Shown: positions 12,512-37,117 of the stretch, piece by piece
Layout of the letters: each line of letters starts with the position of its first letter
Numbering within the stretch: position 1 is the first letter of the stretch
Made by a program: the position numbers and the translations under genes
The notes under the pieces: model-generated
The model's input: the letters and a program-made list of their open reading frames with translations, nothing else
What the model was told of the DNA's origin: nothing
Databases searched by the model: none
Assembly (NCBI GenBank): GCA_902592965.1
Contig: CACJGL010000004.1
Coordinates: 4,624-68,623, forward strand
Source of the DNA: an uncultured Pelagibacteraceae bacterium
GTDB lineage: Bacteria; Pseudomonadota; Alphaproteobacteria; Pelagibacterales; Pelagibacteraceae
Direction of reading: 5' to 3'
DNA length: 64,000 nucleotides

Positions 12512-13058
12512 TATAATTTTGAATCTTAAATACTTTTTGATCAATCATCATATTTGTTTTCATATCAGTTAACTTTGTTTCAACTCTATTTAGATAAATA
12601 TCTGTTGTTGTCCACCCCTTTATCTCATAACTTATTTTATCAAAAAAAATGTTTAATAAATTGTTATTATGTATAATTTCAAAAGAAAGGGTTTCATCAT
12701 TTTCTTGAACAATTTTTACCTTATCTAACTTATCAAGAAGAAATTTTTTATCTAAAATTAAATTAAGGGGTGTATCCTTAAGTTGGTATCTTAAATAATT
12801 TTTAATTTTTTTACTATTTATCACGAGCGATTTTCCGTTAGATACTAAAATTTTATTATAAATATCATCATATTTACAAAATATTTTTTTTGGATATGAA
12901 ATTATACATTCGCCTTGTTCAGTTTTTTTTCCAATTTTTTGTACGAATTTAAAAGATATATTATCTGTTTCTTCTAGTTTATTTTTTATTAGTTGCTTCG
13001 TTGATGCAAAAATATTTAATGGATAAAAAAAAATAAAAATAAAAATTATATATTTCAC
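12504..13058 (-). CDS. lolA: Outer-membrane lipoprotein carrier LolA family
   Basis: Signal peptide, F.Q..G...P.K...Y, LVSNGK, TPL; directly downstream of ftsK. Confidence 0.8.
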   Translation of the reverse strand: MKYIIFIFIFFYPLNIFASTKQLIKNKLEETDNISFKFVQKIGKKTEQGECIISYPKKIFCKYDDIYNKILVSNGKSLVINSKKIKNYLRYQLKDTPLNLILDKKFLLDKLDKVKIVQENDETLSFEIIHNNNLLNIFFDKISYEIKGWTTTDIYLNRVETKLTDMKTNMMIDQKVFKIQNYIN

Positions 13059-15137
13059 TATTTTAAAACTTCTCTTTTGCCGACATGGTTAGCTTTACTT
13101 ACTTCACCATTTAATTCCATTTGATCAATAATTCTAGCAGCTCTATTATATCCAATTTGTAATTTTCTTTGCAAAAATGAGGTAGATGCTTTTCTTTCTG
13201 ATTTAATTATTTCTAAAGCTTCATTATACAATTCATCAGTATCAGAATTATCCTTATTTTTATCATTAATCTCTTTCTCATCAGCGAAGTTTAAAATTTC
13301 ATCAACATAATCTGGCTCTGCTTGGTTTCTGAGAAAGTTATTTACTTTATCTATTTCTATCTCTGAAACGTAGGGTGCGTGTATCCTTGTTATCCTGTTT
13401 GCAGAAGACATATACAACATGTCTCCTCTCCCTAAGAGTTGCTCAGCTCCCTGTTCACCCAAAATTGTTCTGCTATCAATTTTAGAAGTTACTTGGAATG
13501 AAATACGAGTAGGAAAATTAGCTTTTATAGTTCCAGTTATCACGTCAACACTTGGTCTTTGTGTAGCCATTATTATATGAATTCCAGCAGCTCTAGCCAT
13601 TTGTGATAATTTTTGAATATAGTTTTCAATTTCTTTTCCAGCTACCAACATGAGATCTGACATTTCATCAACTATTACAACAATATAAGGCATCTTAACT
13701 TTATGCTTCTCGTTATATCCATCAATGTTCCTCACACCCACTTTTGTCATTAACCTGTATCTACTCTCCATTTCTTTAACTACCCAACCCAAAACAGATG
13801 CTGCTTTTTTTGCTTCAGTAATAACAGGACATAATAAATGTGGTATCCCTTCATAGGTCGAAAGTTCTAGCATTTTTGGATCGATCAAAATAAATTTACA
13901 GACGTCAGGTGTATGTTTGTAAATAAGTGATAGGATAATTGTATTAATACATACTGATTTCCCTGAACCAGTAGTCCCTGCTATTAATAAATGAGGCATT
14001 GAACTTAAATCACTAGTTATTGGTTCTCCAGATATACTCTTACCAAGAGCAATAGGTAATTTAATTTCTCTTTTTTTAAAATTCTTATCTGAAATTATTT
14101 CTCTTAAAAAAAACATTTTCTCTGGATATCTTTGGTAGTTCAATGCCAACAGTATTACTTCCAGGTATTGTGGCTATTCTTGCAGACTCTGAACTTGTAT
14201 TTCTAGCTATATCTTCTGCTAAATTTATTATTTTGGAAACTTTAACTCCAGCCGCAGGCTCAAATTCATTGAGAGAAACAACGGGTCCATTACTGATTTT
14301 TTTTATTTTTCCTTCAACACCAAAATCAAGAAGTATTTTTTCTAAACCTTCTGCATTTATTTTAATATCATCTTTTTTATTAGAGCCTTTTTCTGGTTTT
14401 TTTAAAAAATCAATTAAAGGTAATTTAATTTTTACGTCACTTAAAATTGATTTTTTATTAGAAAACAAATCTTTTTGAACGGGTGGTTCTTTAGATCTTT
14501 CAATTGTAGTATTTTCTTTAAAAATATTTTCTTGAGTAATTAAATTATCTTTTTTTGATGAAAACAATTTTTTTATCATAGTAAAAAAACTTATAATATG
14601 AGTAATTTTAAAATTACTGCTTAGTAAAAAAAATAATAAAATAAAAAATATTAACAAATAGTAACTTAATGTTTGATTAATTTTCAAAAAATCTGCAATT
14701 ACAGTTTCTGACATTAAATCACCAACAAAACCGTTATTTCCATTTATTATTAACCAATAGGTTTCCTTATGAAAAATACTAAAGAAAAATGTTGCAACAA
14801 TAATGTAAAGAATTGTGAAAAAAACATTTTCTATAATAATAATAAATTTTTTGTTAATTGTTATTGATACTCCAGTAAATAGAAGAGAAAAAGGAATCAA
14901 AAGTGAAATTAAGCCAACTGACTGAAAAAATATATCAGCTATGAAGCTTCCCCTAAATCCAAGAAAATTTTTTATCTCCTGACTTTCTGGAAATATAAAA
15001 TTTGGATCATCTGGAGAATAGCTAATTAAAGATATAAAAAGCAATATTGAGATAACTACTAGAAAAATACCTACTAATTCGGCTAATCTCCTTATAATAA
15101 AATCGCTTAATTTATTGATATAATTTTTAAATACCAT
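13058..15137 (-). CDS. ftsK: DNA translocase FtsK; +1 frameshift in T8 (A8 at 14106-14113)
   Basis: 4TM N-terminus and alpha domain in one frame; GTTGSGKS, IVDEMSDLM, ATQRPS and gamma domain LQIGYNRAAR in the next. Confidence 0.95.
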
Positions 15138-21726: not shown

Positions 21727-24700
21727 TTAGTGTTGCTTACCAAGTATTGTTTTACCTGATGGAACACGAACTTCGTCTACCATTTGCTGTGTAGCTTTAT
21801 CTGGTTCTTCAGTCATTAAACTTACTACAACCATTACAACTAAACAGACCGACGCTCCAATTATACCAAAACGTAAATGGTCAATACCTAACCAAGGTGC
21901 ATTACCCATAAACTTAGGATACACATAAATTAGATAAGCTGTTCCTGATGCAAGACCTGCTATCATACCTGCTATTGCTCCTTGTCTTGTTGCTCTCTTC
22001 CACCATACACCAAGTATTAATGGGAAGAACAATCCTGACATTGCAAAGTCAAATGCCCAAGCAACTGCACCAAGGATACTAGTGATTCTCATCGATGCAA
22101 TGTATGCTCCAGCGGCTCCAATAACTATTAGAAGTGCTCTAGCAACCAACAATCTTTTTCTTACATCCGCTTTTGGATCAATGATTTTGTAATAGATATC
22201 ATGTGATAAAGCGTTTGCGATAGCAAGAATTAGACCATCAGCAGTTGACATCGCAGCAGCCATTCCTCCTGCAGCAACTAGTCCAGAAATTACGTATGGT
22301 AATCCAGCAACTTCAGGAGTTGCCAGTACAACTACGTCACCTCTCATAAACCATTCGTTCAACTGAAGAATACCATCCCCGTTAAAGTCTGCTATGTAGG
22401 CTTGTTTTACATTAATCCAAGCATTTACCCACTCAATTTGCATAATTTCAGCAATTGGTTTTCCAATAATACCTGTTGGTAAGTTTGGATCTATTAGTGA
22501 GATTTTGGATAATGTTGCAAGCATTGGCGCTGAAGTATAAAGCAATGCAATAAAGAATAGTGACCATGCCACTGATTTTCTTGCAGCTTTAACACTTGGA
22601 GTAGTGAAGTATCTCATTAAAATATGTGGTAAAGAAGCCGTTCCTACCATCATACATAGTGCTAATGAAATAAATTTCCATGCAGCCATTCCACCTTCTG
22701 GCACACCTGCGTGTGATACAGCGATAGATTTTAGACCACCTGGTACACCTGCAGCTTTGACGTCTGCAGCAGCATTTTTGACTAATCCAAATTGAGCTTC
22801 AAGATCACCTAATCTAGCCACTTCCTCACCTAACATAAAGTGTGGAAAGAAACCAAATCCAGATTTGTTACTAATCCAGAATACTGGAATTAGGTAAGCA
22901 ATAATCAATACTATGTATTGTGCAACCTGTGTCCAAGTTACCGCTCTCATTCCGCCTAGCATTGAACAAAGTAAAATACTTACTAGTCCAACCCAAACTC
23001 CTAATTCAAATGGAATACTTAGTGCTCTTGATGCAATTGTTCCTGTTGCGTTAATTTGAGCTGTTACATACGTGAAAGATGCCAATGTTAAAACAACTAC
23101 AGCAGCTTCTGCTACTTTTGGATGAGCAACAAACGCACTTTCTATTTCTGCAGTTCCAAGATTATGTCCTGAAACAATAATTACATCATCAACTCTTCCA
23201 GTGATCCAATAATATCCATCTTTATCTCTTCTGCACCCGTCCCCTGTAAAATATTTGCCATCAAATTGAGAAAAATAAGTATCAATAAATCTTTGATGAT
23301 CTCCATAAACTGTACGCATTTGACCAGGCCATGATTGTGCTATACACAAACGACCTTCAGCTTCTCCTTTCAAAACTTTCCCTTCTTTATTTACTATTAC
23401 TGGTTTAATCCCATAAAATGGTTTTGTTGCTGAACCTGGTTTTAAATTTATAGCTCCTGTTTGTGGACTAATTAATATTCCACCAGTTTCAGTTTGCCAC
23501 CAAGTATCAACAATTGGACAATTAGAATCTCCAACAGTTTTATAATACCACTCCCATGCCTCGGGATTGATTGGTTCCCCTACGGTTCCTAATAATTTTA
23601 ATGTTTTTCTTGAAGTTTTTTTAACAGGCTTATCACCTTCTCTCATTAAAGCTCTAATAGCAGTTGGGGCAGTATAAAAAATATTTACTTTATATTTATC
23701 AACGATTTGCCACCATCTTGAACTGTCGGGATAAGTTGGAATTCCCTCAAACATTATTGTTGTTGCCCCATTTGATAATGGTCCATAAATAATATAGCTA
23801 TGACCAGTTACCCAACCAATGTCAGCAGTACACCAATAAATATCTTTAGTTTTATAATTGAATATATATTGATGGGTCATAGATGCATAAACCATATATC
23901 CACCAGTTGTATGCATTACACCTTTTGGTTTTCCTGTTGATCCTGAAGTATACAAAATAAATAAAGGATCTTCTGCATTCATTTCTTCGGGTTCACATTT
24001 GTTTGAAACTTTTTTTATTAACTCGTGGTACCAAACATCTCTTCGTTCATCCCAATTAATTCTATTGCCTGTTCTTTTGACTACTACACATTTTTTCACA
24101 TTTGGACAATTTACCAAAGCCTCGTCAGCTATTGATTTCAGAGGTATTATTTTTCCACCTCTTACACCCTCATCGGCAGTAATTAGATAATCAGACTCAC
24201 AATCGTTTATTCGTCCAGAAATACTATCAGGAGAAAATCCTCCAAAGATTATTGAGTGCACTGCTCCTATTCTTGCACAAGCTAACATAGTATACGCAAG
24301 TTCTGGTATCATAGTTAAATAAATTGTTACTCTATCACCTTTTTTAACTCCTAATTCTTTAAGACCATTTGCAGCTTTAGAAACTTCTTTGTGTAATTCT
24401 TTATAAGAAATTTTCTTTTGAACCTTTGGATCATCTCCAACCCATATAATCGCAGTTTTATCTTTATTCTTCTTTAAGTGTCTATCAATACAATTTGCTG
24501 ATGCATTAAGAGTACCATCATAAAACCATTTTATCTTAACATCTGATTTACTATATTTAACATCTTTAATTTTTGTATATGGTTTTATCCAATTAATTCT
24601 TTTTCCTTCTTTTTTCCAAAATCCATCATTATCTTTTATTGAAGCTTTATATTTTTTTTCATACTGAGATTTATTTACTAGAGCTTTGCTGATCCAGTCT

Positions 24701-24813
24701 TTCTTTGTTCTATATATAAGTTCTTTTTCTTGCTTTGGTGCAAAAGACTTTATCTTAGATTTTCTTTTAGTGATTATTTTCTTCTTTTTTTTTTTAACTT
24801 TTTTTTTTGGCAT
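21727..24813 (-). CDS. acs: In-frame chimera: acetyl-CoA synthetase (aa 1-~573, C-terminus missing) fused to an ActP-like sodium:solute symporter (N-terminus missing)
   Basis: [37 protein letters not shown]; then ...AEAAVV|[45 protein letters not shown]. Confidence 0.9.
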
Positions 24814-24827
24814 GGATTATAAATTTT

Positions 24828-25241
24828 TCAGATACTACCCATCTTCAAAATAATTTTCCAGCATTTAGTGTTAATTGGCATAACAGACAATCTGCTTTGT
24901 TTTATTAGTGCAATATCTTTTAAATCTTTATTTTTTTTAATGTTTTCAAGAGAAACTGGTGTTTTTAGTTTGCTTTTATACTTAACTTTTACTGCTACAA
25001 ATCGCTTATCTTTATCTGTTGGGTCAATAAATGCTGTTTTAATTACCTCAACAATTCCAACGATTTCTTTACCAATATTTGAATGGTAAAAAAAACAAAG
25101 ATCACCCTTCTTCATTTTTTTCAAATTATTGGCTGCTTGATAATTTCTTACTCCATCCCAGTCAGCACCTTTTGGACCAACCATAAATTGTTGATCTATC
25201 GACCAAACATTAGGCTCTGACTTTAACAACCAGTATTTCAT
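24828..25241 (-). CDS. EVE domain protein
   Basis: YWLLKSEP, WDGVRNYQA.N, FFYHS, SRLSV. Confidence 0.95.
   Translation of the reverse strand: MKYWLLKSEPNVWSIDQQFMVGPKGADWDGVRNYQAANNLKKMKKGDLCFFYHSNIGKEIVGIVEVIKTAFIDPTDKDKRFVAVKVKYKSKLKTPVSLENIKKNKDLKDIALIKQSRLSVMPINTKCWKIILKMGSI
25103..25241 (-). repeat. Direct repeat copy 1 (EVE 5' 139 bp)
   Basis: Aligns ungapped with 31886-32024, about 10 mismatches by manual alignment. Confidence 0.95.
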
Positions 25242-25326: not shown

Positions 25327-26985
25327 TTAGTCAATTATATTCCTAAGTCTTAACTCTTTCTCCCAATTAATTATTTCATCATTTTTATTATACAATTGAG
25401 TAATTTTTTTTTTTTTATTTCCTTTATCAATAAAAAAACTTTTTTTAGCCAGTAGTTTGAAGTTGTAATCTGTAGAACAACTTAAAAGAGACCTCGCTGC
25501 ATTTGGTAAATTCATAGTATTTTCAGCATTTATCAGACAACTTTTATCAAATTTTACAATCGTGAAAGTATCATATTTAGAAGTTTTATAGTTATTTTTG
25601 TTAATATATTCTCCATGATCAGATGTGATCACGATATTTGCATTATTGTCGTTATTATAAATATAACTAAAAAATTCTTCTAATTTTTTTAACATGCATT
25701 CGTAATTTTTTTTATAGCCATAATGTTCATCATTGGGTGAATAAGTTGTATTTATTTTTTTAAACTTACAATCTGAATCGTAAACAAATGGTTCGTGTGG
25801 TATCATCAAGTGCATAAAAATAAACTTTTTTGAGTCTTGTTTTATATTTGTTTTATAAAACTTTTTAAAAGAATCATTATTTTCAAAACTTCTCTTTTTA
25901 AAATTATCTTCAACACTTTTGTAAGATTTAAATAAATTTCTAATTCTATTTTCAATAGAATAAAATGGACTAGACTTATAAAATGTTAAAATTACATTAT
26001 ATGAAAATAGTATATTTTTTTCATTTTTTAAATAATTAGAATGACAAAGTTTTTGGTTATATAACTCACAGTTTTTAGTAGCATTCCCAAACCAAAAAAA
26101 ATCATAATCAATATCATCTAAATATTTTATTAAAGGTAGTTTATATATGAATGGTTCTGCTAAAATCTTCGGATAAATTAAATCTTCAGGATAATCATTA
26201 ATATTTTTTTCATTGAGATGGTATTTCATAAAAAAAGCAGATGCTATGCTATTTGAGCTGTAGGGATAAGCTGTTTTTGTGCCAGAAATATATTTAAATC
26301 CATACTTTGATGCTGTATTTAAGAATTTATCTGAATAATTCCTTTTATAAACTTTTTCAAACTCATTTAAGTCAACTGCGTCATCTACGATAATTAAATA
26401 AATATTCCTCTTAGAATTTATTGATGATATTTTTTTCTTATCTATAGCTGTTACAAAATTTTGCTTGCTAGATTTCAATTTATATAAATTATAAATTAAA
26501 AAATATGCTTCAGTAAAAAAACAAATAGCTATAAATATAGATATAAACCTTTTTGCAAATGAGTTATTTTTAAATAGAACTAATATTATGAAAATTAAAT
26601 ATATAAATAATAATATAATAAATGATATCTCTCCAGAGATAGAAGATAAATCATAATCTGATATATCATAAATTACTATAACTAAATTTTTTTTTAAAGA
26701 TGAAAAAAAATAAAAAAAAATAAAAAAAAATAAAGCTATCGCAATTAGTAACTTGTTAAAAATTTTTTTTTTAAAAACAAAATTAATAAATATTGCAGAA
26801 ATAGTAATTAAAAAAAGATAGAAAAAAAAATTAATAATAATCGATTTAATAAAAACATTATCTATTTCTAGATAATTTCTATTCATAAAAGAGATATTCG
26901 GAATTATTATAATTATTGCGCTCAGAATAAAGTATAAAATATAACTTTTAACGCCTAAATTATTAAAAAGTTTTTTAAATAACAT
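25327..26985 (-). CDS. Membrane-anchored alkaline-phosphatase-superfamily protein (LtaS/sulfatase-like transferase)
   Basis: About 5 N-terminal TM helices; NIYLIIVDD, HLMIPHEPF and ITSDHG metal-binding motifs; very AT-rich. Confidence 0.8.
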   Translation of the reverse strand: MLFKKLFNNLGVKSYILYFILSAIIIIIPNISFMNRNYLEIDNVFIKSIIINFFFYLFLITISAIFINFVFKKKIFNKLLIAIALFFFIFFYFFSSLKKNLVIVIYDISDYDLSSISGEISFIILLFIYLIFIILVLFKNNSFAKRFISIFIAICFFTEAYFLIYNLYKLKSSKQNFVTAIDKKKISSINSKRNIYLIIVDDAVDLNEFEKVYKRNYSDKFLNTASKYGFKYISGTKTAYPYSSNSIASAFFMKYHLNEKNINDYPEDLIYPKILAEPFIYKLPLIKYLDDIDYDFFWFGNATKNCELYNQKLCHSNYLKNEKNILFSYNVILTFYKSSPFYSIENRIRNLFKSYKSVEDNFKKRSFENNDSFKKFYKTNIKQDSKKFIFMHLMIPHEPFVYDSDCKFKKINTTYSPNDEHYGYKKNYECMLKKLEEFFSYIYNNDNNANIVITSDHGEYINKNNYKTSKYDTFTIVKFDKSCLINAENTMNLPNAARSLLSCSTDYNFKLLAKKSFFIDKGNKKKKITQLYNKNDEIINWEKELRLRNIID

Positions 26986-27039
26986 TTGAATTATTTTATC
27001 GCTATTATTAGTAGTCTAATATATTAAAATATATTTTAC

Positions 27040-28341
27040 ATGAAGAATAAAAAAAAAAAAATAGTATACGCTGCTTTGTCCGCGGATATATTGCATGAAG
27101 GTCATATTAATATTTTAAAATATGCTAACAAACTTGGCGATGTCATCGTTGGTCTTTTGACTGATGAAGCAATTGCGTCTTATAAAAATATACCAACTTT
27201 AAATTATAGACAGAGAGAAATTGTTTTAAAAAATATTAGATATGTAAAAAAAGTTATTCCTCAAAAAACTCTAGATTATAGGCCTAATTTATACTTTATT
27301 AAGCCAAATTATGTAGTTCATGGTGACGATTGGAAAACAGGTGTTCAAAAAAATACTAGAAGACAAGTAATTTTAACAATTAAAAAATGGGGTGGTAAAT
27401 TAATAGAACCAAATTATACAAAAAATATTTCTTCAACCAAAATTAAATCAAATCTTATAAGTCAATTAACTCCTACATCAAGAGTTTCAAATTTAAGAAG
27501 ACTATTGAAAACCAAAAAGCTGGTAAGAGTTTTAGAAGCCCACAGTCCACTATCAGGTTTACTTATTGAAAATACAAAAATTGAAAAAAAAAATAAAATT
27601 GAACAGTTTGATGCTATGTGGTCTTCGAGCTTAACAGACTCTAGCTTAAAAGGTAAACCAGATAATCAATCATTAGATTTTTCTTCAAGATTTAATGGAT
27701 TAGGTGATTTATTAGATGTAACCACAAAACCTATAATTTTCGATGCAGACAACGGAGGAAGATTAGAACATCTTTCATTTACTATAAGAACTCTTGAGAG
27801 ATTAGGAGTTTCAGCAATTATCATAGAAGATAAAGTTGGTTTAAAAAAGAATTCGCTATTCAAAAATCAATCAGGATCTAAGCAAGATAATATTAATGAA
27901 TTTTGCAAAAAAATTAAACTGATAAAAAAAACAAGAAAGTCCAAAGATTTCTTAATAGGTGCAAGAATAGAAAGTTTTATTTTAGGCAAGGGGTTAAATG
28001 ATGCATTAAAACGAGCTAAAGCATATTCGAATTCTGGTGCAGATTTAATTTTAATTCATAGTAAAGAAACAACTCCCAAAGAAATATTTTCATTTTCTAA
28101 AATTTTTAGAAAAACAAAATGGAATAAACCTTTAGTATCAGTACCCTCAACATATTCGAGGACTACCGAAAACGAATTATTTAAAAATGGTTTCAGAATT
28201 GTTATATATGCAAATCATATGCTAAGAGCAGCATACCCAGCTATGCAAAGTGCTGTTAAAAGTATACTTAAAAATAAAAGATCTTACGATTTAGAAAATA
28301 AAATTAGCTCAGTAAATGAAATAATTAATTTAATTAAATAA
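27040..28341 (+). CDS. pepM: Phosphoenolpyruvate mutase with N-terminal cytidylyltransferase domain
   Basis: DILHEGH (HxGH) and VVHGDDW NTase motifs; PepM signature EDKVGLKKNS (EDK-X5-NS), ARIES, IYANH..RAAY. Confidence 0.96.
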   Translation: MKNKKKKIVYAALSADILHEGHINILKYANKLGDVIVGLLTDEAIASYKNIPTLNYRQREIVLKNIRYVKKVIPQKTLDYRPNLYFIKPNYVVHGDDWKTGVQKNTRRQVILTIKKWGGKLIEPNYTKNISSTKIKSNLISQLTPTSRVSNLRRLLKTKKLVRVLEAHSPLSGLLIENTKIEKKNKIEQFDAMWSSSLTDSSLKGKPDNQSLDFSSRFNGLGDLLDVTTKPIIFDADNGGRLEHLSFTIRTLERLGVSAIIIEDKVGLKKNSLFKNQSGSKQDNINEFCKKIKLIKKTRKSKDFLIGARIESFILGKGLNDALKRAKAYSNSGADLILIHSKETTPKEIFSFSKIFRKTKWNKPLVSVPSTYSRTTENELFKNGFRIVIYANHMLRAAYPAMQSAVKSILKNKRSYDLENKISSVNEIINLIK

Positions 28342-29450
28342 TGATATTAGTAAATAAACTAATTGAAGTTTTAAAAAAAAACAAAATAGAATTTTTTACC
28401 GGAGTTCCTGACAGCATTTTAAAAAATTTTTCTTTATATTTAGAAAAATTACCAAAACAAATGCATGTTATAGCTACAAATGAAGGTTTGGCTACATCTT
28501 TAGGAATTGGTTATTATTTATCTACAAAAAAAATACCATGTATATATTTACAAAACTCAGGATTAAGTAATGCAATAAATCCTCTAATTTCAATTGCAAA
28601 TAAAGCAGTTTATTCAATACCATTATTTTTAATGATAGGATGGAGAGGTTCTCCAAAAAAATTTGACGAGCCACAACATAATGCAAAGGGCAAAATAACC
28701 ACTAAATTATTAAAACTTTTAAAAATTGAATACTGCATTTTAAGAGAAGAAGAAGACTTAAAAAAACTAAATAAAATAATTAAAACAGCAAAAAAAAACC
28801 AAAGCATAGTTGCCTGCCTGGTAGAAAAAAATACTTTAAAATTTGGTCAAATAATAAATAAGAAAAAGGAAAAAAATTATATCTTTCGTCACGAATTTAT
28901 TGAGGAGTTTTTAAAATTAGTACCAAAAAAAAGTAAAATAATTTCTACAACTGGATTTACCTCAAGAGAGTTAATGGATTTAAGAAAAAAAAATAAAATT
29001 AAAAATGGAAAAGATTTTTATATGGTAGGTGGGATGGGTCATTCAGCGAGTGTAGCATCAGGTTATGCTTTACATTCAAAAAAAAAAATATTTTGTTTAG
29101 ATGGTGATGGTTCAATATTGATGCATATGGGTGCATTAAGGACAATAGGCTATCTTAAGAAAAAAAATTTAAGCCATATATTATTAAATAATAATTCGCA
29201 TGAATCTGTTGGTGGCCAACCCACGTCAGCTTTTGGAATAGATTTTAAAAAATTATGTATTAGTCTTGGATACAAGAATTATTTTTTTATAAATAATAAA
29301 AAAAATTTAAAAATAAAGATCAAATCTTTCATCAAATCTAAAGGTCCGAGTTTTTTAGAGGTAAAAATAAATAATGGCTCTTTAAAGAATTTGTCTAGAC
29401 CAAAAAATCTAAATAAAATAAAGAAAAATTTTATGTCAACTTATGATTAA
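28341..29450 (+). CDS. ppd: Phosphonopyruvate decarboxylase
   Basis: FTGVPDS, QNSGL.NAINPL, DEPQH, VGGMGH, ThDP motif DGDG..NN..HESVGGQ. Confidence 0.95.
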   Translation: MILVNKLIEVLKKNKIEFFTGVPDSILKNFSLYLEKLPKQMHVIATNEGLATSLGIGYYLSTKKIPCIYLQNSGLSNAINPLISIANKAVYSIPLFLMIGWRGSPKKFDEPQHNAKGKITTKLLKLLKIEYCILREEEDLKKLNKIIKTAKKNQSIVACLVEKNTLKFGQIINKKKEKNYIFRHEFIEEFLKLVPKKSKIISTTGFTSRELMDLRKKNKIKNGKDFYMVGGMGHSASVASGYALHSKKKIFCLDGDGSILMHMGALRTIGYLKKKNLSHILLNNNSHESVGGQPTSAFGIDFKKLCISLGYKNYFFINNKKNLKIKIKSFIKSKGPSFLEVKINNGSLKNLSRPKNLNKIKKNFMSTYD

Positions 29451-30561
29451 TTTTAATATTTCATCAAATAAAGATCTTAACAACTTTCTAAAAGATTCAA
29501 AATTCAAAAATATATTTATAATATCTGGCAAAAAATCATTTGAAGCCTCAGGATCGAAAAAAATTATGAAAAAATTCTTGATAAATAAGAATGTAAAATA
29601 TTATTTTAAAATAAATTCATATCCTGAACTTAACGAGTTAAAAAAAATAATTAAAGAAATCAAAATATTTAGTCCCGATTTAATTATTGCAATTGGCGGC
29701 GGATCGGTAATCGATTATGCTAAAATTGCAAATGTTTTAACAAGTAGTAAAAATTTAAAATATGAAATTTTAAATTCCTCTTACAATGTAAAAAATAAAT
29801 TTACTAAATTAGTTGCAATACCAACTACTGCAGGATCTGGAGCAGAAGTTACCACAAATGCAGTAATATATATAAACAAAATTAAATATTCAGTTGAAGG
29901 AGATAAATTAAGACCTGATTTTTTTTTTTTAATTCCCGAGTTAGTTTTGGGTGCTTCCAATAAAATTAAATCATCAGCAGGTTTTGATGCTATTGCCCAA
30001 GCAATGGAGTCACTCATTTCAAAAAAATCAAATTCTAAAAGTGTAGCTTTTGCAAAAAAATCTCTCAAAATCTCTTTAAAATATTATTTAGATTTTTTAT
30101 CAAATCCAAATAAAGAAAATTCATATGCAATGTGTTTGGCCTCAAATTTAGCTGGTGAAGCAATTAGTATATCTAAAACAACGGCACCTCATGCAGTATC
30201 TTACCCTTTTACAGCAATTTATAATATTAGTCATGGACATGCTGTTTCTTTAACTCTTGATAAATTTTTTAAATTTAACTTTAAAAATATTAAAAACGCA
30301 AAATGTAATTTTAACCTCAATGATAGATATAAAATAATGTTTGATATTACCAAAAGTAAAGATATTGACAGTTTTAATGGGTATATTAAAAATATTAAAA
30401 AAGAAGCAAATCTTGAAAGTAATTTTATTAAATTAGGAATTGATTTAAAGAAAGATTATTCAAAGATTATCTCAGGTATTAATATAATGAGATTATCAAA
30501 CAATCCGGTGCAATTAAAAAAAAATGATTTAAAAGAAATTATTCTTAAAGATAATGTTTAA
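29443..30561 (+). CDS. Phosphonoacetaldehyde reductase (iron-containing alcohol dehydrogenase)
   Basis: GGGSVID.AK, IPTTAGSGAE, TTAPHAVSYP, HGHAV; follows pepM-ppd. Confidence 0.88.
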   Translation: MINFNISSNKDLNNFLKDSKFKNIFIISGKKSFEASGSKKIMKKFLINKNVKYYFKINSYPELNELKKIIKEIKIFSPDLIIAIGGGSVIDYAKIANVLTSSKNLKYEILNSSYNVKNKFTKLVAIPTTAGSGAEVTTNAVIYINKIKYSVEGDKLRPDFFFLIPELVLGASNKIKSSAGFDAIAQAMESLISKKSNSKSVAFAKKSLKISLKYYLDFLSNPNKENSYAMCLASNLAGEAISISKTTAPHAVSYPFTAIYNISHGHAVSLTLDKFFKFNFKNIKNAKCNFNLNDRYKIMFDITKSKDIDSFNGYIKNIKKEANLESNFIKLGIDLKKDYSKIISGINIMRLSNNPVQLKKNDLKEIILKDNV

Positions 30562-31864
30562 AAAGAAATACTTTTCACTAAATTTAGTTTTAATTATTTA
30601 TTTTTTAATTACTAGTAGTTCATATGCATATCTTGATCCAGTAACTGGATCTTTTATTATACAGATTATTGTTGCCACCTTTGCAGCAATAATTACTTTT
30701 CTATCTTTTTTTTGGTCTAAAACTAAAGAATTTTTTTATAATTTTTTTTTTAAAAGAGAGAATTTAGCTAAATCTTTAAGAGGTTATGTTAAATTTTTAA
30801 AATTGAAGAAAAATGATGATCTCATATTTTATAGCGAGTCTAAAAATTATAGAAATTATTTTATAGAATTAATAAATAATCTAGGTAAAAGTCATAAAAT
30901 TATTTATCTTACATCTGATGAAGAAGACTTAGATCATATTAATGATGTAAAACCTATATTTATAGGCGATGGTATAATAAGATTAATTCTTTTTAAATTT
31001 CTTAAGTGCAAAATAATTTTTTTAACACTGACAAATCTTAATTATCATCAATTAAAAAAATCAAAAAAATGTGAAAATTATATATATATATTTCATTCTT
31101 TGGTTAGCACTCATAAATGTTACGAAAAAAATTCGTTTGAAGCTTATGATATTATCTTTTCCAATGGTCCATATCAAACTCGAGAACTTAAAAAGGCGGA
31201 AGAGATTTATAATTTTAAACAAAAAAAAATATTTGAAACCGGATATTTATATTATGAGTTTTTAAAGAAAAATAAAAAAAATTTACCTGTTAAAAAAGGA
31301 ACAATACTTTTTGCTCCATCTTGGAATAGAAATAATAAAAATTTATTTGATGATTATTCTCATGAACTTATATCATCTCTTTTAAAGCAAAATTTCAAAG
31401 TAATATTTAGACCCCACCCCGAGTTATTGAAAAGATCTAATAAAACCTTAAAAAAATTAGTTACTTCTTTTAAAGATAATAAGAATTTTAGATTAAATAA
31501 AGATATTACTGATGTTCAATACTTAGAAGAGTCTGAATTTCTAATAACTGATAATGGTGGTATGGCTTTAGAATATTCTACAATATTTGAAAAGCCCACA
31601 ATGTATATTAATTATTCTGAAAAAATTCATAACAAGGATTTTAAAGAAATTGATGTGAGTACAATTGAAGATACCTTTAAAGAAATGTTTTGTTTATCAA
31701 TAAAAATTGATCAAATTGATGAAATACAATCTTTGAAAAAAAAAATGGATAGTAATTTTATTGAACAAAAAGATAAAATTAAATTATTTGTTTCAGAGAA
31801 TTTTAATTTTGATATCCCACCTTCGAAAAAATGTAAATCTTTGATTGAAGATATTATAAAATAA
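30554..31864 (+). CDS. TagF/CDP-glycerol glycerophosphotransferase-like protein with N-terminal YLDPxTGS membrane segment
   Basis: IFHS, ETGY, LFAPSW, FRPHP, LITD.GG..EY motifs. Confidence 0.8.
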   Translation: MFKKKYFSLNLVLIIYFLITSSSYAYLDPVTGSFIIQIIVATFAAIITFLSFFWSKTKEFFYNFFFKRENLAKSLRGYVKFLKLKKNDDLIFYSESKNYRNYFIELINNLGKSHKIIYLTSDEEDLDHINDVKPIFIGDGIIRLILFKFLKCKIIFLTLTNLNYHQLKKSKKCENYIYIFHSLVSTHKCYEKNSFEAYDIIFSNGPYQTRELKKAEEIYNFKQKKIFETGYLYYEFLKKNKKNLPVKKGTILFAPSWNRNNKNLFDDYSHELISSLLKQNFKVIFRPHPELLKRSNKTLKKLVTSFKDNKNFRLNKDITDVQYLEESEFLITDNGGMALEYSTIFEKPTMYINYSEKIHNKDFKEIDVSTIEDTFKEMFCLSIKIDQIDEIQSLKKKMDSNFIEQKDKIKLFVSENFNFDIPPSKKCKSLIEDIIK

Positions 31865-31868
31865 AATA

Positions 31869-32024
31869 TTATAATTTTACTCCAGCACCCTTCTTCATTT
31901 TTTTAAAATTATTTGCTGCTTGATAATTTCTTACTCCATCCCAGTCAGCACCTTTTGGACCAACCTTTAATTGTTGATCTATCGACCAAACATTAGGCTC
32001 TGATTTGAGTAACCAATATTGCAT
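31869..32024 (-). pseudogene. Truncated EVE duplicate (46 EVE codons plus AGVKL*); direct repeat copy 2
   Basis: MQYWLLKSEPNVWSIDQQLKVGPKGADWDGVRNYQAANNFKKMKKG-AGVKL*; about 93% identical to 25103-25241. Confidence 0.92.
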
Positions 32025-32038
32025 TTAAATAATTTATA

Positions 32039-32200
32039 TTAAATTGCTATGTAAGTAAAAGGTATAAAAACTTGAACAAAAACAAAAATAGAAAAAATTA
32101 AAACTAAAAAAATAAACATTATAAAAAATATTAATTTTACATAACCATATTTTTTTTTAAAGTCATTAATTAGGTAAATATAATTTAAAATTTTTTTCAT
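32039..32200 (-). CDS. DUF5989/SxtK-like small membrane protein (53 aa), not in ORF track
   Basis: MKKILNYIYLINDFKKKYGYVKLIFFIMFIFLVLIFSIFVFVQVFIPFTYIAI*; ATGA overlap with the carbamoyltransferase stop; PFxY C-terminus. Confidence 0.72.
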   Translation of the reverse strand: MKKILNYIYLINDFKKKYGYVKLIFFIMFIFLVLIFSIFVFVQVFIPFTYIAI

Positions 32201-33888
32201 ATCTTTTTTACTTTAAATATACCGTTATTCATTACGACATATTCAATATTCATTCTTATCATATTTGTATAAACGTCAAACAAATCAAACACCATTGGAT
32301 CTTTTGATATATTAAAAGATGTATTTACTAGTATGTTAACATTATTTTCTTCTAGCTTTTTTAATAATTTAAAAATAAATGAATTTTCATCATCAATAAC
32401 TTGAGTTCTGCAGGTGTTGTCAGTGTGAATTACAGGTAAGTAATCATTTTTTAATTCTTCTTTCGCCTCACATAGAGTTCCCATTGAATATAAATTTTTT
32501 TTAATACTATTTTGAATAGAAAAATATCTTTCAAATTTTTCTTTAAGTAACATCGGAGCAAGTGGTTGATAAAATTCCCTTTTTTTTATTCTGTTATTTA
32601 AATTTTCAACAGCTAATTTATCTTTAGCATTACAAATTATAGAAGTATTGCCCAATGCGCGAGGTCCTGTTTCCATTTTATCAATATAAGTTGTAAGAAT
32701 GTGGCCTTTGATTATTAGATTAGAAGCTATTTCTAAAGAGTTTTCCTTTTGAGAAATTTTTTCAAAAAATTCACTCAATTTGAATCCTTTATTGATATCC
32801 TCTTTATCTGGTCCAGGAAATAGACCTATATGTTTTAAGAATTTATTATTTTCATAAAAATACGAAAAATTCGCAGCCCCAATTGCTGAGCCCGAATCTC
32901 CCGGTGAAGGAGGAACAATTAATTCTTCAAATATGTTTTGTTTAGATAATTCGTGTATCATTTTACAATTTAATGCTACACCACCCGTTAGAACAATTTT
33001 GTTTTTACCTGTTAGTTGTTTTGCTTTTAAAATAAGATTTTTTACCGATTTTTTTAATATTAGTTGAGCTGAACTTGCAATATTAGAATACTTTTGAAAA
33101 TTTTCTTTAATTCCCAAATTTAAATAAGGCTTTCCAAAAATTTTTATAATTATTTCAGAGAACGATCTTTCAGGATTTTTTTGAAATTCAAAGTACGACG
33201 AATTTATCTTTAATTGTTCACAATCAAAAATTTTTTCCATTTCTTTCTCATAAATTGGATTACCATATGAACTTAAACTCATTACTTTAAACTCACCTTC
33301 ATTTGTGTCAAAACCTAGAAAATCAGTTATAGTAGAATAAAATAATCCAATTGAATTAGGATAAAAGTTTGTCCAATGTTTTTTTATTAAATTTTCAGAG
33401 TTGATTGTGTATATGGTCATTGTTTCACCTTCTCCTACCCCGTCACAACTTACAAATGCATAATCATCAATATTATCTACGTATAATGAACCATACAAAC
33501 AATGGCTGAGATGATGCGATGAATATAAAATTTTATCTTTAGATATTTTTATTACTTCATTTAAATGAGTATAAAAAAATATAGACCCTGTATTAAAATT
33601 TTTTAGATGGTGTGTTAATAATTTTTTATTCTCCAGAGGTTTTTTTATTGAATAAATAAAGATTTCCCACCATGATTTGAAAGGTTTTTCATAAAAACAT
33701 ACTGATTTTATATTGCTTTCGTTTAAAGAATATTTTTTTTTTAAAAATTCTAAGCATCTTTTCGGGAAACTTTTGTCACCTTTTATTCTTGTAAAATACT
33801 CTTCTTTAATAAAACAATTGATATTTATTCCATCTGTTAAGAAAATAGAAGATTCGTGATAATAAGCTGAAATACCAATATAAAACAT
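32197..33888 (-). CDS. O-carbamoyltransferase (NodU/CmcH/TobZ/SxtI family)
   Basis: GISAYYHES, HHLSH, GEFKVM, GGVALNC, GDSGSAIGAA, GPRALGN, NTSFN. Confidence 0.93.
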   Translation of the reverse strand: MFYIGISAYYHESSIFLTDGININCFIKEEYFTRIKGDKSFPKRCLEFLKKKYSLNESNIKSVCFYEKPFKSWWEIFIYSIKKPLENKKLLTHHLKNFNTGSIFFYTHLNEVIKISKDKILYSSHHLSHCLYGSLYVDNIDDYAFVSCDGVGEGETMTIYTINSENLIKKHWTNFYPNSIGLFYSTITDFLGFDTNEGEFKVMSLSSYGNPIYEKEMEKIFDCEQLKINSSYFEFQKNPERSFSEIIIKIFGKPYLNLGIKENFQKYSNIASSAQLILKKSVKNLILKAKQLTGKNKIVLTGGVALNCKMIHELSKQNIFEELIVPPSPGDSGSAIGAANFSYFYENNKFLKHIGLFPGPDKEDINKGFKLSEFFEKISQKENSLEIASNLIIKGHILTTYIDKMETGPRALGNTSIICNAKDKLAVENLNNRIKKREFYQPLAPMLLKEKFERYFSIQNSIKKNLYSMGTLCEAKEELKNDYLPVIHTDNTCRTQVIDDENSFIFKLLKKLEENNVNILVNTSFNISKDPMVFDLFDVYTNMIRMNIEYVVMNNGIFKVKKI

Positions 33889-33893
33889 TAAAG

Positions 33894-34610
33894 TTATAGT
33901 ATTGATTTTGGATTAATATTTTTTAAAACATCATTGTCCATTTTGGATTTATCCAAATCCAAAAATCTTACAGGTAAAGACATAATTAAAATTAATAAGT
34001 ATAAAATTGGATTAAAAATTTTTGAAACTTTAGTTAAGCTATTAGCATAAAGATGCCTTAACTTACTTATTAAATTCTCTTTTGAGAATTTAATAAAATA
34101 ACTGAATTTGGAATTATTTTTTTTTGCAAATTTAAGTGAATACTTGGCATGTCGTTCTTCATCTAACAAAATTTTGTCAATTTGCTTTGAGTGATCCGGT
34201 TTAAATTTTCTAATATTTTTGAGAAAATCATGCAATTTTTTTTCTGCAATTTCCTCATTTGCACCAATAAAAATTGCAAAGTCTTTAATATTTTTTTTCT
34301 CAAAAATAAATTTATCTTTATATATATATCCTTTAGCAAATAGATGAATTGGTACAAATCTTATTTCTCTATTATTTAATTGGTGTTCTAAGGAAATTTG
34401 GTTTTTGATATTTGTAAATATAGAAAAATGTTTATACTCATCTAATGAATGTCTTATGAAACCTTTGCTTAATTTTAAATCATCTACATTTTTAGCTGCA
34501 AATAACATTTCTAACGCAGATGCAAATTCTGCTGCAGAAAATTCATTTAAAACAAAACAACATCTTAAAGGTTCAAATTTTTCTAGCTTATTTTTTGGTA
34601 TTAAAAACAT
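33894..34610 (-). CDS. Ferritin-like diiron protein with C-terminal membrane helix
   Basis: Two E...ExxH pairs (AAEF...DEYKH; NEEI...DEERH); C-terminal NPILYLLILIMSLPVR. Confidence 0.72.
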   Translation of the reverse strand: MFLIPKNKLEKFEPLRCCFVLNEFSAAEFASALEMLFAAKNVDDLKLSKGFIRHSLDEYKHFSIFTNIKNQISLEHQLNNREIRFVPIHLFAKGYIYKDKFIFEKKNIKDFAIFIGANEEIAEKKLHDFLKNIRKFKPDHSKQIDKILLDEERHAKYSLKFAKKNNSKFSYFIKFSKENLISKLRHLYANSLTKVSKIFNPILYLLILIMSLPVRFLDLDKSKMDNDVLKNINPKSIL

Positions 34611-35529
34611 TTTATTAATAATTTTTCTTTTAATTTTAACAACAAGTTCCTTAAAATCAAAAGAATGTTTAGATTTTTTACCATTTGGTCATAACGAAAA
34701 TTATGTTCAATTACCTGAAGAAACTCAATTTTGTATTAAATACGGCAAGCAGAATTTGATTTTTAAAACAGATAATAAAGGTGGAAGATTTTTCAAAAAA
34801 AAAAATGAAAATACAATTCAGGTTTTTGGGGATAGTCAAATTTTAGGTATTGATATACAAAATCAGAAAGATCATTTCTTGTCAAAATTTTATAACAAAG
34901 ATTTAGTAATCTATGCTGCTCCTAATAATGGTCCCTACCAAGTTTTAAATTTCATTATCTTAAATCAAGAAAAAATAAATAAAAAAATAATTATTAGTTT
35001 TAATTTGTCTGTTGATATTTTTCGTTTACATCCTGATTATAACATCCAAAATTATGTAGCGCTTAGACAGGATCAATTAAATGATATAATTGAAAAACCA
35101 TTTAAATACAGACTTATTATTCTAAAAAGTTTAATCACAAATAAATTTTTCACAATTTCTAGAAAAAATCAAAAAAAAATGCAAATTCTTTTTGAAAATA
35201 AAAATACCAAAGAGCTTGAAAAAAACTTAAATATATATTTTGAAAACTTAAATGAAATTATTGATAAACTTGATATTGAAGTAGATTATATCTTAACAAT
35301 GCCTTATTGGATTTATGAGCAAGATGAAAATAATAAAAGTTTTTTTATTAACTCTAATTTAGAGCTTAAGTTGAAGAATTTAGTTTGTAGAACATTTCAC
35401 AAAAATAATAAATTACAAAATAAATATGTCTCTATTTTAGACAACAATAATAAAATTCTCACTAAGGATAATAGGCATTTAAGATTAGATAAATTAGTTT
35501 TGACTGATTTAGTAAATTATTGTAAATGA
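34600..35529 (+). CDS. Exported SGNH/GDSL-like protein (start uncertain; ORF open from 34405)
   Basis: Signal-like KNILLIIFLLILTTSSLKS, FGDS block I, PNNGP, late D..H (DNRH). Confidence 0.6.
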   Translation: MKNILLIIFLLILTTSSLKSKECLDFLPFGHNENYVQLPEETQFCIKYGKQNLIFKTDNKGGRFFKKKNENTIQVFGDSQILGIDIQNQKDHFLSKFYNKDLVIYAAPNNGPYQVLNFIILNQEKINKKIIISFNLSVDIFRLHPDYNIQNYVALRQDQLNDIIEKPFKYRLIILKSLITNKFFTISRKNQKKMQILFENKNTKELEKNLNIYFENLNEIIDKLDIEVDYILTMPYWIYEQDENNKSFFINSNLELKLKNLVCRTFHKNNKLQNKYVSILDNNNKILTKDNRHLRLDKLVLTDLVNYCK

Positions 35530-35533
35530 TAGT

Positions 35534-36043
35534 ATGATCAAAAAAATATTCTGTATAACGCTTTTTTCATTATTAACTTTTTCATTCAATGTTAATTCAG
35601 CAGAAATAAAATGTGATGCAGTAGTTATTAGTTCACCAGACATTAAAGGCGATGAGGATTGTAAAAAGAATAAGATTTCAACGAAAAATGCAGAAGTTAA
35701 ATTTGATGATGGATCGATATACCAAGGACCAATTAAAAAAAATAAGATAAATGGCAAAGGAAAATTAACTCTTAATGATGGCTCTGTTTATGAAGGTAAA
35801 TTTAAAAGTAATAAATTTATACAAAAATTTGATAGGAAAAGTAGAATCTTTATTAAATTTAATTTCAAAAAACCAATAAACATTAAAAATCAAATGAAAG
35901 TTACCGGTTTAACAAAATGGTATCCTGCAGATGTTGTTAATGGAGAATTCAAACTTTCAAAAAAAGGAAAGTTGATGGTGTCTCAAGATAAAAAAGCTGC
36001 ACAAGGTGGTGATAGCGGTGGAAGCGGTGGAAGCGGCTGCTAA
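35534..36043 (+). CDS. Exported MORN-repeat protein with Gly/Ser-rich Cys-terminated tail
   Basis: Signal peptide; DGSIYQG..KINGKG.L..DGSVYEGKF; ends GGDSGGSGGSGC. Confidence 0.75.
   Translation: MIKKIFCITLFSLLTFSFNVNSAEIKCDAVVISSPDIKGDEDCKKNKISTKNAEVKFDDGSIYQGPIKKNKINGKGKLTLNDGSVYEGKFKSNKFIQKFDRKSRIFIKFNFKKPINIKNQMKVTGLTKWYPADVVNGEFKLSKKGKLMVSQDKKAAQGGDSGGSGGSGC
36014..36036 (+). repeat. 9-bp tandem repeat (AGCGGTGGA x2 + AGCGG) encoding SGG repeats
   Basis: Read directly from sequence. Confidence 0.8.
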
Positions 36044-36046
36044 AAA

Positions 36047-37117
36047 TTAATAAATTAATCCAGATCCTTTTAAAAATTTAGCACTAGCATCTAAGGCTAA
36101 TCTTGGATTAGCTTCTAAATCCATATTATCAAATTTCTTTATTTTATATTTTTCTAGACCTACCAATGCGATCATTGCTGCGTTGTCTCCACATAGTTTA
36201 ATATCTGGAAAAATTGCCTTAAAGCCATTCTCATTACTCACTTCGGTTAGTTTTTTTCTTATACCATTGTTTGCAGCAACTCCTCCCGCAACAACAAAAG
36301 ACTTTTCTTCAAATGGGTTTTTTAAAAATTCCTTAAAAGCGATCTTAGATTTAATATACAATATTTCTTCGATAGTTTTTTGAAAAGACGCTGCTAAATC
36401 ATATTTTTCTTGTTCTGAATTTATATATTTTGTTATTCTTAGTATTGCAGTTTTAAGTCCTGCAAAAGATAAATTGCATCCACCTTTATTAATTATTGGT
36501 TTGGGTAATTTATATTTATTTGGATCACCTTTTTCAGCAAATTTTTCTAACTTTGGACCACCTGGAAATTCTATTCCTAAAAGCTTTGCAGTTTTGTCAA
36601 ATGCCTCTCCTAAAGCATCATCAATTGTAGTGCCTAATCTTGTGTAACTACCTAATCCATTCACACTTAAAAATTGACTGTGTCCACCCGATATCAACAG
36701 AAGTAAATAAGGATAATTAATATTAGTTTGAAGTCTTGGACTTAAAGCATGACCCTCTAGATGATTGACACCAATAAATGGAATTTTTAAGGATGATGCA
36801 AGTGATTTTGCAAAATTTAAACCAACACTAAGACAAATTATTAAACCAGGTCCAGATGTTGCGGCAACAGCAGATATTTTATCAAGAGATACACCACTCT
36901 CATCCAAAGCTTTTTTTGCAATTAAATTAATTTTTTCAACATGTGACCTTGCAGCCAATTCTGGCACAACTCCTCCAAATTCTTTATGAATGTCAAATTG
37001 ACTTGAAACGATATTTGATAAAATTTTTGGTATACCACTCTCGTTATCTTGAATAATTGAAACCGCTGTTTCATCACAACTTGTCTCAATTCCTAATATT
37101 ATTGGGCTTTTATTCAT
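36047..37117 (-). CDS. tsaD: t6A37 threonylcarbamoyltransferase TsaD
   Basis: GIETSCDET, GGVVPELAARSH, HLEGH, DDALGEAFDK, GGVAAN, DNAAMI. Confidence 0.98.
   Translation of the reverse strand: MNKSPIILGIETSCDETAVSIIQDNESGIPKILSNIVSSQFDIHKEFGGVVPELAARSHVEKINLIAKKALDESGVSLDKISAVAATSGPGLIICLSVGLNFAKSLASSLKIPFIGVNHLEGHALSPRLQTNINYPYLLLLISGGHSQFLSVNGLGSYTRLGTTIDDALGEAFDKTAKLLGIEFPGGPKLEKFAEKGDPNKYKLPKPIINKGGCNLSFAGLKTAILRITKYINSEQEKYDLAASFQKTIEEILYIKSKIAFKEFLKNPFEEKSFVVAGGVAANNGIRKKLTEVSNENGFKAIFPDIKLCGDNAAMIALVGLEKYKIKKFDNMDLEANPRLALDASAKFLKGSGLIY

Follow-up and report, generated by a model that had tools for sequence, protein, structure and literature searches.

Among the nearest described counterparts of the locus considered here is the SxtI/SxtJ/SxtK/SxtL module, for which the available part of one account gives sxtJ and sxtK as genes of unknown function and sxtL as GDSL-like (PMC2679770). 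In DltX and PatA, an FXYXXF hexapeptide with an invariant tyrosine is described as an acyl shuttle from which the acyl group passes to the serine of an SGNH protein; the word “carbamoyl” does not occur in the main text of that report as far as it was available (PMC12148441). HypF S-carbamoylates HypE at its C-terminal cysteine, according to the accessible part of PMC12134894, and peptide pathways that include a carbamoyltransferase number only two in the portion of PMC13174530 at hand. Here we describe a five-gene cassette in a 64,000-nucleotide stretch of DNA (the window) from an uncultured Pelagibacteraceae bacterium (assembly GCA_902592965.1, contig CACJGL010000004.1, positions 4,624 to 68,623 of the forward strand). 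What is new is an SxtIJKL-like module with a new, predicted diiron family and a co-inherited candidate substrate that carries a cysteine tag. The genes of the cassette, in window coordinates, are as follows.

32039..32200, minus strand: single-pass membrane microprotein P0003, 53 aa, ending IPFTYIAI, SxtK-like in position
32197..33888, minus strand: CmcH/NodU-type carbamoyltransferase P0002, 563 aa, with both Pfam domains and the conserved motifs intact
33894..34610, minus strand: ferritin-like di-metal protein P0001, 238 aa, with DEYKH at residues 57-61 and DEERH at 150-154
34600..35529, plus strand: P0004, an exported SGNH hydrolase/transferase whose N-terminus is signal-like (ATT 34600 is the inferred start)
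35534..36043, plus strand: exported protein P0005, 169 aa, predicted acceptor or carrier, with a weak MORN repeat and a Gly/Ser-Cys end

These five open reading frames (ORFs) are real, and together they make up a single mobile unit, which sits in a Pelagibacter-like genome at the tsaD/EVE hot spot. On the minus strand 5 nt separate P0001 from P0002, and P0002 and P0003 share a 4-nt ATGA overlap; on the plus strand 4 nt lie between P0004 and P0005, and 3 nt between P0005 and the tsaD stop. An earlier note on this DNA had placed all five genes here, with the trio so arranged, and they recur together in 127 loci, which exceeds what chance would give. It had also described the exported SGNH gene and a MORN gene as running divergently from the trio. 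Both ORFs are present, but the genes of P0001 and P0004 overlap head to head (ATG 34610 against a likely ATT 34600) and leave no intergenic space, and the MORN match falls below the Pfam cut-off (E 0.0028). The P0004 gene has, within its own clade, no ATG near the signal-like start.

The cassette occurs in the bacterial order that is most abundant in the sea, as well as in further marine lineages. P0001 matched 15 of 401 genomes of the order; one match, in genome G395 (E 4.7e-4), had no cassette genes around it and was dropped as spurious, leaving 14 (about 3.5% of those sampled). These order-wide tallies (n = 401) include the unpublished genomes G111 and G316, neither of which is among the positives. 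Thirty-four further genome loci and 80 of 83 metagenome loci were added, for a total of 127 with duplicates included, and their labels include Pelagibacteraceae, SAR116, one Rhodospirillaceae metagenome-assembled genome and one short contig labelled Flavobacteriaceae. Linkage of the ferritin-like gene to its neighbors, as the earlier note supposed, is close to complete: a carbamoyltransferase gene follows in 115 of the 116 loci where 150 nt or more lie downstream (184 nt in the one exception), the small membrane gene is present in 73/73 loci with room for it, and an SGNH-like gene in 120/127. Sixty-seven loci have all three genes complete, of which 42 remain below 90% identity; homologues of P0001 range down to 24% identity to it, and the cassette occupies several unrelated chromosomal sites. 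None was found in 400 other genomes of the class or on viral contigs, phages and plasmids, where five viral pattern matches lacked cassette genes. One variant of the cassette is called type II here; in a locus of this type (L030:8811-12362) the P0001-type gene is split into two ORFs and the carbamoyltransferase reading frame, 932 aa long, runs on into an SGNH-like domain.

The main clue to what the cassette acts on, missed by the earlier note, lies at the end of the fifth gene. P0005 consists of a signal-like N-terminus, the weak MORN repeat, a shared beta-hairpin/helix module, a Gly/Ser linker and a terminal cysteine, so that its C-terminus reads GGDSGGSGGSGC. The conserved feature of the fifth gene is this Gly/Ser-Cys C-terminus and not the MORN repeat. 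We scored as a tail any adjacent exported-type protein with a Gly/Ser-Cys end, in loci of the P0001-P0005 type whose flank measured 900 nt or more (n = 55). Under this fixed rule 42 loci have the full ending, six have Gly/Ser without Cys and seven have neither; loci with a shorter flank gave a Gly/Ser-Cys neighbor in 19/59. Once eight duplicates were removed and misses were checked by eye, the cysteine tail was present in 43 of 47 distinct loci (L074, L083 and L141, with looser tails, are counted among them), a serine end in three and no tail in one. Clustering at 60% SGNH identity gives 19/21, with one serine-ended cluster and one without a tail. Among the 55 distinct tail proteins called, 42 share the hairpin/helix module ahead of the tail while their N-terminal parts vary (MORN, FecR-like), and 11 are lipopeptides of 38-61 aa that comprise a linker, the cysteine and what we take, by its lipobox pattern, to be a lipoprotein-type signal; one 930-aa protein without the Cys and one spurious call make up the rest. 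The tail module has no Pfam or NCBIfam family.

Such endings are scarce elsewhere. Of the 330 ORFs in this genome whose N-terminus is hydrophobic, two pass the tail rule, as does one doubtful case of 57 in 20 canonical SxtJ/K loci, and by profile P0005 is the only Gly/Ser-Cys tail protein in its genome. A strict DNA pattern for the tail gave 22 matches in 21/401 genomes of the order, and the six that are ORF ends fall in five genomes, all of them cassette-bearing; one, G230, has two such tails on a separate contig. A profile of the tail module matched 5/171 genomes, all with a P0005-type cassette and bound to match by construction, and the informative part of that result is the other 166 genomes, which lack a P0005-type cassette and gave no match. 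A loose DNA pattern returned noise (261/401 genomes, with controls equally high), and none of 30 fetched loci was called as an ORF end; the true tail gene of genome G070 (L165) was missed among them because a larger opposite-strand ORF displaced it. Some tails (L242:405-1187, L021, L041, L043, L074 and L137) are His/Met-rich or hold two to three cysteines, a composition that hints at metal binding.

The Gly/Ser-Cys tail points to a protein or peptide acceptor rather than a glycan or lipid, and we consider it probable that the tail serves, in some form, as a covalent acceptor or carrier.

The enzyme that would supply the transferred group is a full carbamoyltransferase, as had been claimed. Both Pfam domains of P0002 score above cut-off (PF02543, Carbam_trans_N, E 4.5e-44; PF16861, Carbam_trans_C, E 4.6e-39), and its Kae1-like and YrdC-like domains place it among the CmcH/NodU enzymes. 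The motifs HHxSH, DGxG, GGVxxN, PGDSG, GPRxL and NTSxN are conserved, and the nearest solved structures are NovN, GdmN and TobZ. In the carbamoyltransferase tree, a quick tree, P0002 lies far from the SxtI-type enzyme encoded on contig C7 of the same genome. That contig carries a canonical trio of SxtJ, DUF5989 and carbamoyltransferase genes (G000:C7:32467-34840) near sugar-nucleotide genes, and the C-termini of its DUF5989 proteins read PFIYT[IL]F, which fits the FXYXXF shuttle motif exactly.

The microprotein P0003 belongs to no Pfam or NCBIfam family. All 58 distinct homologues end in PFTYxx[FILV], with P47, F48, T49 and Y50 invariant. The earlier note had pointed to a comparison of this ORF with DUF5989, but membership in that family is not supported: no Pfam match to SxtK/DUF5989 (PF19451) was found in 10/10 members at E<=10, nor any at this locus, and against a DUF5989 profile the PF-x-Y end alone aligns, with 4/60 shuffles scoring as high. 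What P0003 does share with SxtK/DUF5989 is a length of about 50 aa, one membrane helix, the C-terminal PF-x-Y and a place adjoining a carbamoyltransferase. An ORF ending PF[IVL]Yx[LIV]F is present at 28/30 canonical SxtJ loci. By analogy with DltX and PatA, Y50 is a predicted tyrosine acyl shuttle.

The exported protein P0004 has no Pfam or NCBIfam match, yet the claim that it is an SGNH protein held up: it has the Ser, Gly, Asn and Asp-x-x-His blocks of the superfamily in a predicted SGNH fold (AlphaFold2 model; predicted local distance difference test, pLDDT, 93). The catalytic-type residues are kept throughout the family (S78 56/56, G110 56/56, N134 55/56, D289 53/56, H292 55/56), these residues and two cysteine pairs being conserved in 50-56 of 56 rows, and about half of the family has GES instead of GDS. 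The model is closest to the crocagin protein CgnD (8a2n), with a Foldseek E of 8.6e-4 and a VIA Z of 12.8 (root-mean-square deviation, rmsd, 4.0 over 228 aligned residues); the next match has Z 10.5.

That likeness, which extends over nearly the whole length of P0004, brings in a different reading of the cassette, as a cytoplasmic route resembling those to RiPPs (peptides made on the ribosome and modified after translation). Membrane-anchored P0001 and P0002 would oxidize and carbamoylate the Cys tail, in either order, before or during export, the SGNH protein would, like CgnD, trim or release the product, and P0003 would be only an anchor. A candidate for the co-encoded ribosomal substrate with a conserved modifiable residue that RiPP pathways have is the product of the Cys-tail gene, which co-occurs with the enzymes; its modification is a prediction. 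In the part of PMC10070186 available, the crocagin pathway has an SGNH protease alongside hydroxylation and carbamoylation, and in the std cluster a NodU-like enzyme is paired with a multi-iron oxidase on a peptide, again as far as the source extends (PMC13174530). The route would also avoid having to move the group across the membrane, and 11 of the tail genes encode minimal precursor-like peptides. However, it leaves the invariant C-terminal tyrosine motif of P0003 unexplained, the lipopeptides and the larger proteins share no conserved leader or recognition sequence beyond the tail, and type II cassettes retain both enzymes without a tail gene. On balance we regard this route as doubtful.

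P0001 was predicted to adopt a four-helix ferritin-like fold, and its AlphaFold2 model (pLDDT 84.7) is such a bundle. The model aligns with DpsL (8w1d) at a VIA Z of 16.3 (rmsd 2.3, 143 residues), with ADO (5ux2) at Z 14.8 over 166 residues and with COQ7 at Z 13.6 over 157, although a Foldseek search gave no match reaching E 0.001 and identity to solved structures of the AurF/CmlI/DnfA, ADO and COQ7 group is 10-20%. Among 54 homologues dereplicated at 70%, H54, D57, E58, H61 and E119 are present in every member and E28, E151 and H154 in 53, so that the pattern E...ExxH...E...ExxH is conserved across the family (53-54/54). The candidate ligands are E28, H54, E58, H61, E119, E151 and H154 (with D57 in addition), that is, three His and four Glu. 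No Pfam or NCBIfam model scores above cut-off; among weak Pfam matches in 39 members the commonest is Rubrerythrin (20/39), and AurF is matched in 9/39 (best E 0.0019). Membership of the AurF/CmlI N-oxygenases is not supported: the AurF match is below cut-off and the extra histidine precedes the first ExxH motif and not the second. We propose that P0001 represents a new, unclassified diiron family with a predicted oxygenase role. Many homologues (L027, L028 and L064-L069 among them) have an insert of about 20 residues that repeats an ExxH-like motif before the DExxH of the fourth helix. Unnamed clusters of 234-238-aa proteins in the ESM Atlas (897, 265 and 50 members) score 0.95-0.96 against P0001, and two of the three are commonest in Actinomycetota; the family may therefore be wider than the marine loci found here.

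The predicted oxygenase role has to be set against the possibility that P0001 is a metal-loading, redox-protective or scaffolding subunit, in which case the cassette would perform plain carbamoylation only. DpsL, bacterioferritins and Dps are its top structural matches, Rubrerythrin is its commonest weak Pfam match and the cassette has no reductase. Against this, no more than 3 Z units separate the storage proteins from the enzymes (ADO, PaaA-like, COQ7), the enzymes align over longer stretches, and the invariant extra histidine and membrane helix are, to our knowledge, not features of ferritins. We consider such a non-oxygenase role very unlikely.

The C-terminus of P0001 forms an amphipathic helix followed by one hydrophobic helix (about residues 201-219), and a hydrophobic 19-mer (Kyte-Doolittle hydropathy at least 1.6) ends 17-28 residues before the C-terminus in 41/43 homologues. 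The earlier note had likened this tail to a helix of SxtJ while observing, correctly, that the cassette contains no standalone SxtJ gene. The membrane helix is there; homology to SxtJ (PF19588) is not supported, with no Pfam match and an hhalign probability of 0.5-0.7%. Against a 29-row SxtJ profile the tail scored 11.7, the reversed profile 11.2, and 2/60 column shuffles reached as high. P0001 thus brings a membrane helix to the gene slot adjoining the carbamoyltransferase, where SxtJ sits in canonical modules, by analogy only. No longer, fused form of P0001 was found among 7,985 scored candidates of 490-2000 aa, which is weak evidence.

Two cytoplasmic enzymes, a microprotein with an invariant tyrosine, an exported SGNH protein and a flexible arm ending in a nucleophile suggest a relay. 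We tentatively favor, at somewhat less than even confidence, the reading that the cassette carries a carbamoyl-type group out of the cytoplasm, through the inner membrane, and places it on the last residue, a cysteine, of the exported Gly-tailed protein that it encodes. Hypothetically, this would require five steps. P0002 would make carbamoyl-AMP from carbamoyl phosphate, as TobZ/HypF-type enzymes do. Membrane-anchored P0001 would then activate O2 and oxidize the carbamoyl nitrogen or its amine donor. This second step is the least certain and the weakest; oxidation of the carbamoyl nitrogen is favored in it. The 3-His/4-Glu set resembles that of N-oxygenases, and sites of three His and four carboxylates occur in AurF/CmlI/DnfA according to the available part of PMC9478400. 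The group would next be loaded on Tyr50 of P0003 in the fashion of DltX, be passed to Ser78 of exported P0004 and finally be discharged onto the tail thiol, for which the HypF reaction is the precedent. The product would be a cysteine, tethered in the envelope, that bears an S-carbamoyl group (+43 Da) or an S-(N-hydroxycarbamoyl) group (+59 Da), and this modified cysteine may be an end product, possibly metal-binding, or a swinging-arm carrier. Under such a relay, any action of P0001 would have to precede export or fall on the donor side.

Several observations weigh against this relay. There is no MBOAT gene within the five-gene unit, and with no MBOAT or other known membrane-crossing catalyst the loading of an outward-facing tyrosine by a cytoplasmic enzyme is unexplained. 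The cassette has no reductase gene either. The extra histidine of P0001 is not placed as in AurF/DnfA, its ligation being a prediction in any case, and the small proteins end in the strict FxYxxF, with Phe as last residue, in only 21/58. CgnD, the closest match to P0004, acts as a slow leader-peptide protease and not as a transferase in the available part of PMC10070186. Lastly, not every cassette has the Cys tail. In one Pelagibacter clade (3 loci) serine stands in for the terminal cysteine with the other genes intact, a single event to judge from its place on one branch of the carbamoyltransferase tree; the type II clade (4 rows, also one branch) lacks a tail gene and instead carries two different SGNH-like genes, and no tail-module match was found in 3/3 type II genomes.

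The type II clade also bears on the proposal of the earlier note in the form that has a surface glycan or lipid as the target, which the module would hydroxylate and O-carbamoylate. The Cys-tail protein would then be an accessory or transient carrier, replaced in type II by a second SGNH protein. The two SGNH-like genes of type II have a parallel in two-step polymer acylation systems, of which AlgJ/AlgX is an example, and COQ7-like membrane diiron hydroxylases share the fold of P0001. The architecture is SxtI/J/K/L-like (PMC2679770, in the part available). GDSL/SGNH genes adjoin 5/20 canonical SxtJ/K loci by Pfam, run on 26/29 candidate ORFs (a motif screen is insensitive here, detecting 1/20). 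However, none of the five genes of the unit encodes a glycosyltransferase or an exporter, the unit lies at several unrelated chromosomal sites, and the tree shows the exchange between type I and type II as one event only. We find a glycan or lipid target unlikely.

A bolder form of the relay would join all of these elements. In it the carbamoyltransferase and a new diiron N-oxygenase would build an N-hydroxycarbamoyl group, which the tyrosine microprotein and the SGNH protein would carry across the membrane without an MBOAT. Exported proteins and lipopeptides would receive it on a portable tag, the Gly-linker-Cys, and ocean bacteria would so gain a ribosomally made, envelope-tethered metal-binding group, and SxtK/DUF5989 proteins would generally be carbamoyl shuttles. 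We offer this as a speculation that is probably wrong in at least some part.

The boundaries of the unit at the hot spot are the following.

31869..32024, minus strand: left boundary scar, the 5' part of an EVE gene joined to a tsaD-like 3' end (51-aa stub)
36047..36060, minus strand: right boundary, the 3' end of tsaD

Over 140 nt the left stub matches the intact EVE gene (24828-25241) at 93% identity, and a comparable EVE/tsaD-like stub is present in locus L025 (L025:6402-6581). An EVE 5'/tsaD-like 3' fusion between two inserts suggests that cassettes accumulate in tandem between tsaD and EVE. A single RNA-library contig of depth 2 joins 32025 to 36060 and skips the cassette, which fits an empty site. 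RNA-library contigs from four runs touch the P0005 gene in 4/4 and both enzymes in 2/4; they are short contigs of relatives and not evidence of transcription. A second insert at the same hot spot (25327-31864) encodes a sulfatase-fold membrane protein, a cytidylyltransferase-phosphoenolpyruvate mutase fusion, a phosphonopyruvate decarboxylase-like protein, an Fe-alcohol dehydrogenase and a weakly GT-B-like protein, and from its genes looks like a hydroxyethylphosphonate surface-decoration cassette. It is a separate insert; relatives with the five-gene cassette at the same site lack the phosphonate genes.

Elsewhere in the window, an acetyl-CoA synthetase gene (to about residue 608 of a relative's 673) is fused in frame to an acetate-permease-like gene (from residue 154) at 21727-24813, and the two genes that separate this pair in relatives did not turn up in the genome; we read the fusion as a deletion or amplification chimera. 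An FtsK-like gene appears as two overlapping ORFs at 13058-15137 (a frameshift or assembly error), and two tandem type IV pilin-like genes with GFTLIEL N-termini lie at 10272-11305.

A published description of the cassette was not found in the full-text literature, a scope outside which most subscription papers and supplements fall (for example those of the DltX/PatA and crocagin studies), and neither was the combination of carbamoyltransferase, ferritin-like and SGNH genes. In the parts available, PMC11252979 mentions a C-terminal cysteine, diiron, RiPP and a signal peptide but no carbamoyltransferase, and in 10.64898/2026.04.03.716430, which mentions Pelagibacter and a genomic island, the carbamoyltransferase is ornithine carbamoyltransferase. 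Among the matches listed, and as far as their texts were available, the SxtJ/SxtK literature concerns toxin or cyanobacterial clusters, a further set of papers contains neither DUF5989 nor SxtJ, and the literature on DltX with a carbamoyltransferase consists of genome or transcriptome papers. If true, a relay onto the tail cysteine would modify envelope proteins in a manner not described so far. The unit is compact and brings along a candidate substrate, which can be a mere 38 aa long, and this makes three questions directly testable: the role of SxtK-like microproteins, whether carbamoyl can pass across a membrane by way of a tyrosine, and the function of a new diiron family.

The cassette resembles each of the known systems in part. 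Like the SxtI/SxtJ/SxtK/SxtL module, it has a CmcH/NodU carbamoyltransferase beside a membrane protein of about 50 aa ending PF-x-Y and a GDSL/SGNH gene. Unlike that module, it lacks SxtJ and has a ferritin-like protein in the SxtJ slot, its small protein fails DUF5989, and it includes a Cys-tail gene; none of 20 canonical SxtJ/K loci has a ferritin-like gene, the P0004-type SGNH family or the tail module. With DltB/DltX/DltD and PatA/PatB it shares the pairing of a catalytic SGNH protein, exported, with a membrane microprotein whose last six residues follow F-x-Y-x-x-hydrophobic, but there is no MBOAT, the donor is a carbamoyltransferase and the predicted acceptor is a protein tail rather than a wall polymer. 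HypF/HypE likewise joins a carbamoyltransferase to the C-terminal cysteine of a partner (PMC12134894, in the part available), but HypE is a cytoplasmic ATP-dependent dehydratase that feeds hydrogenase maturation, whereas the partner here is exported and no enzyme domain was found in it. P0001 shares with AurF/CmlI/DnfA, ADO and COQ7 a ferritin-like bundle, with three His and four Glu as candidates, although its extra histidine stands before the first ExxH motif whereas the third histidine of the AurF group stands four residues before the second. Finally, the crocagin (Cgn) and std RiPP systems, so far as their descriptions were available, place an iron oxygenase and a carbamoyltransferase on a ribosomal peptide, as is predicted for the cassette. 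Their oxidases are a 2-oxoglutarate dioxygenase or an MNIO where the predicted one of the cassette is ferritin-like, and the candidate precursor of the cassette, in contrast to theirs, is exported, has a Gly-linker-Cys as its conserved part and is accompanied by a membrane microprotein.

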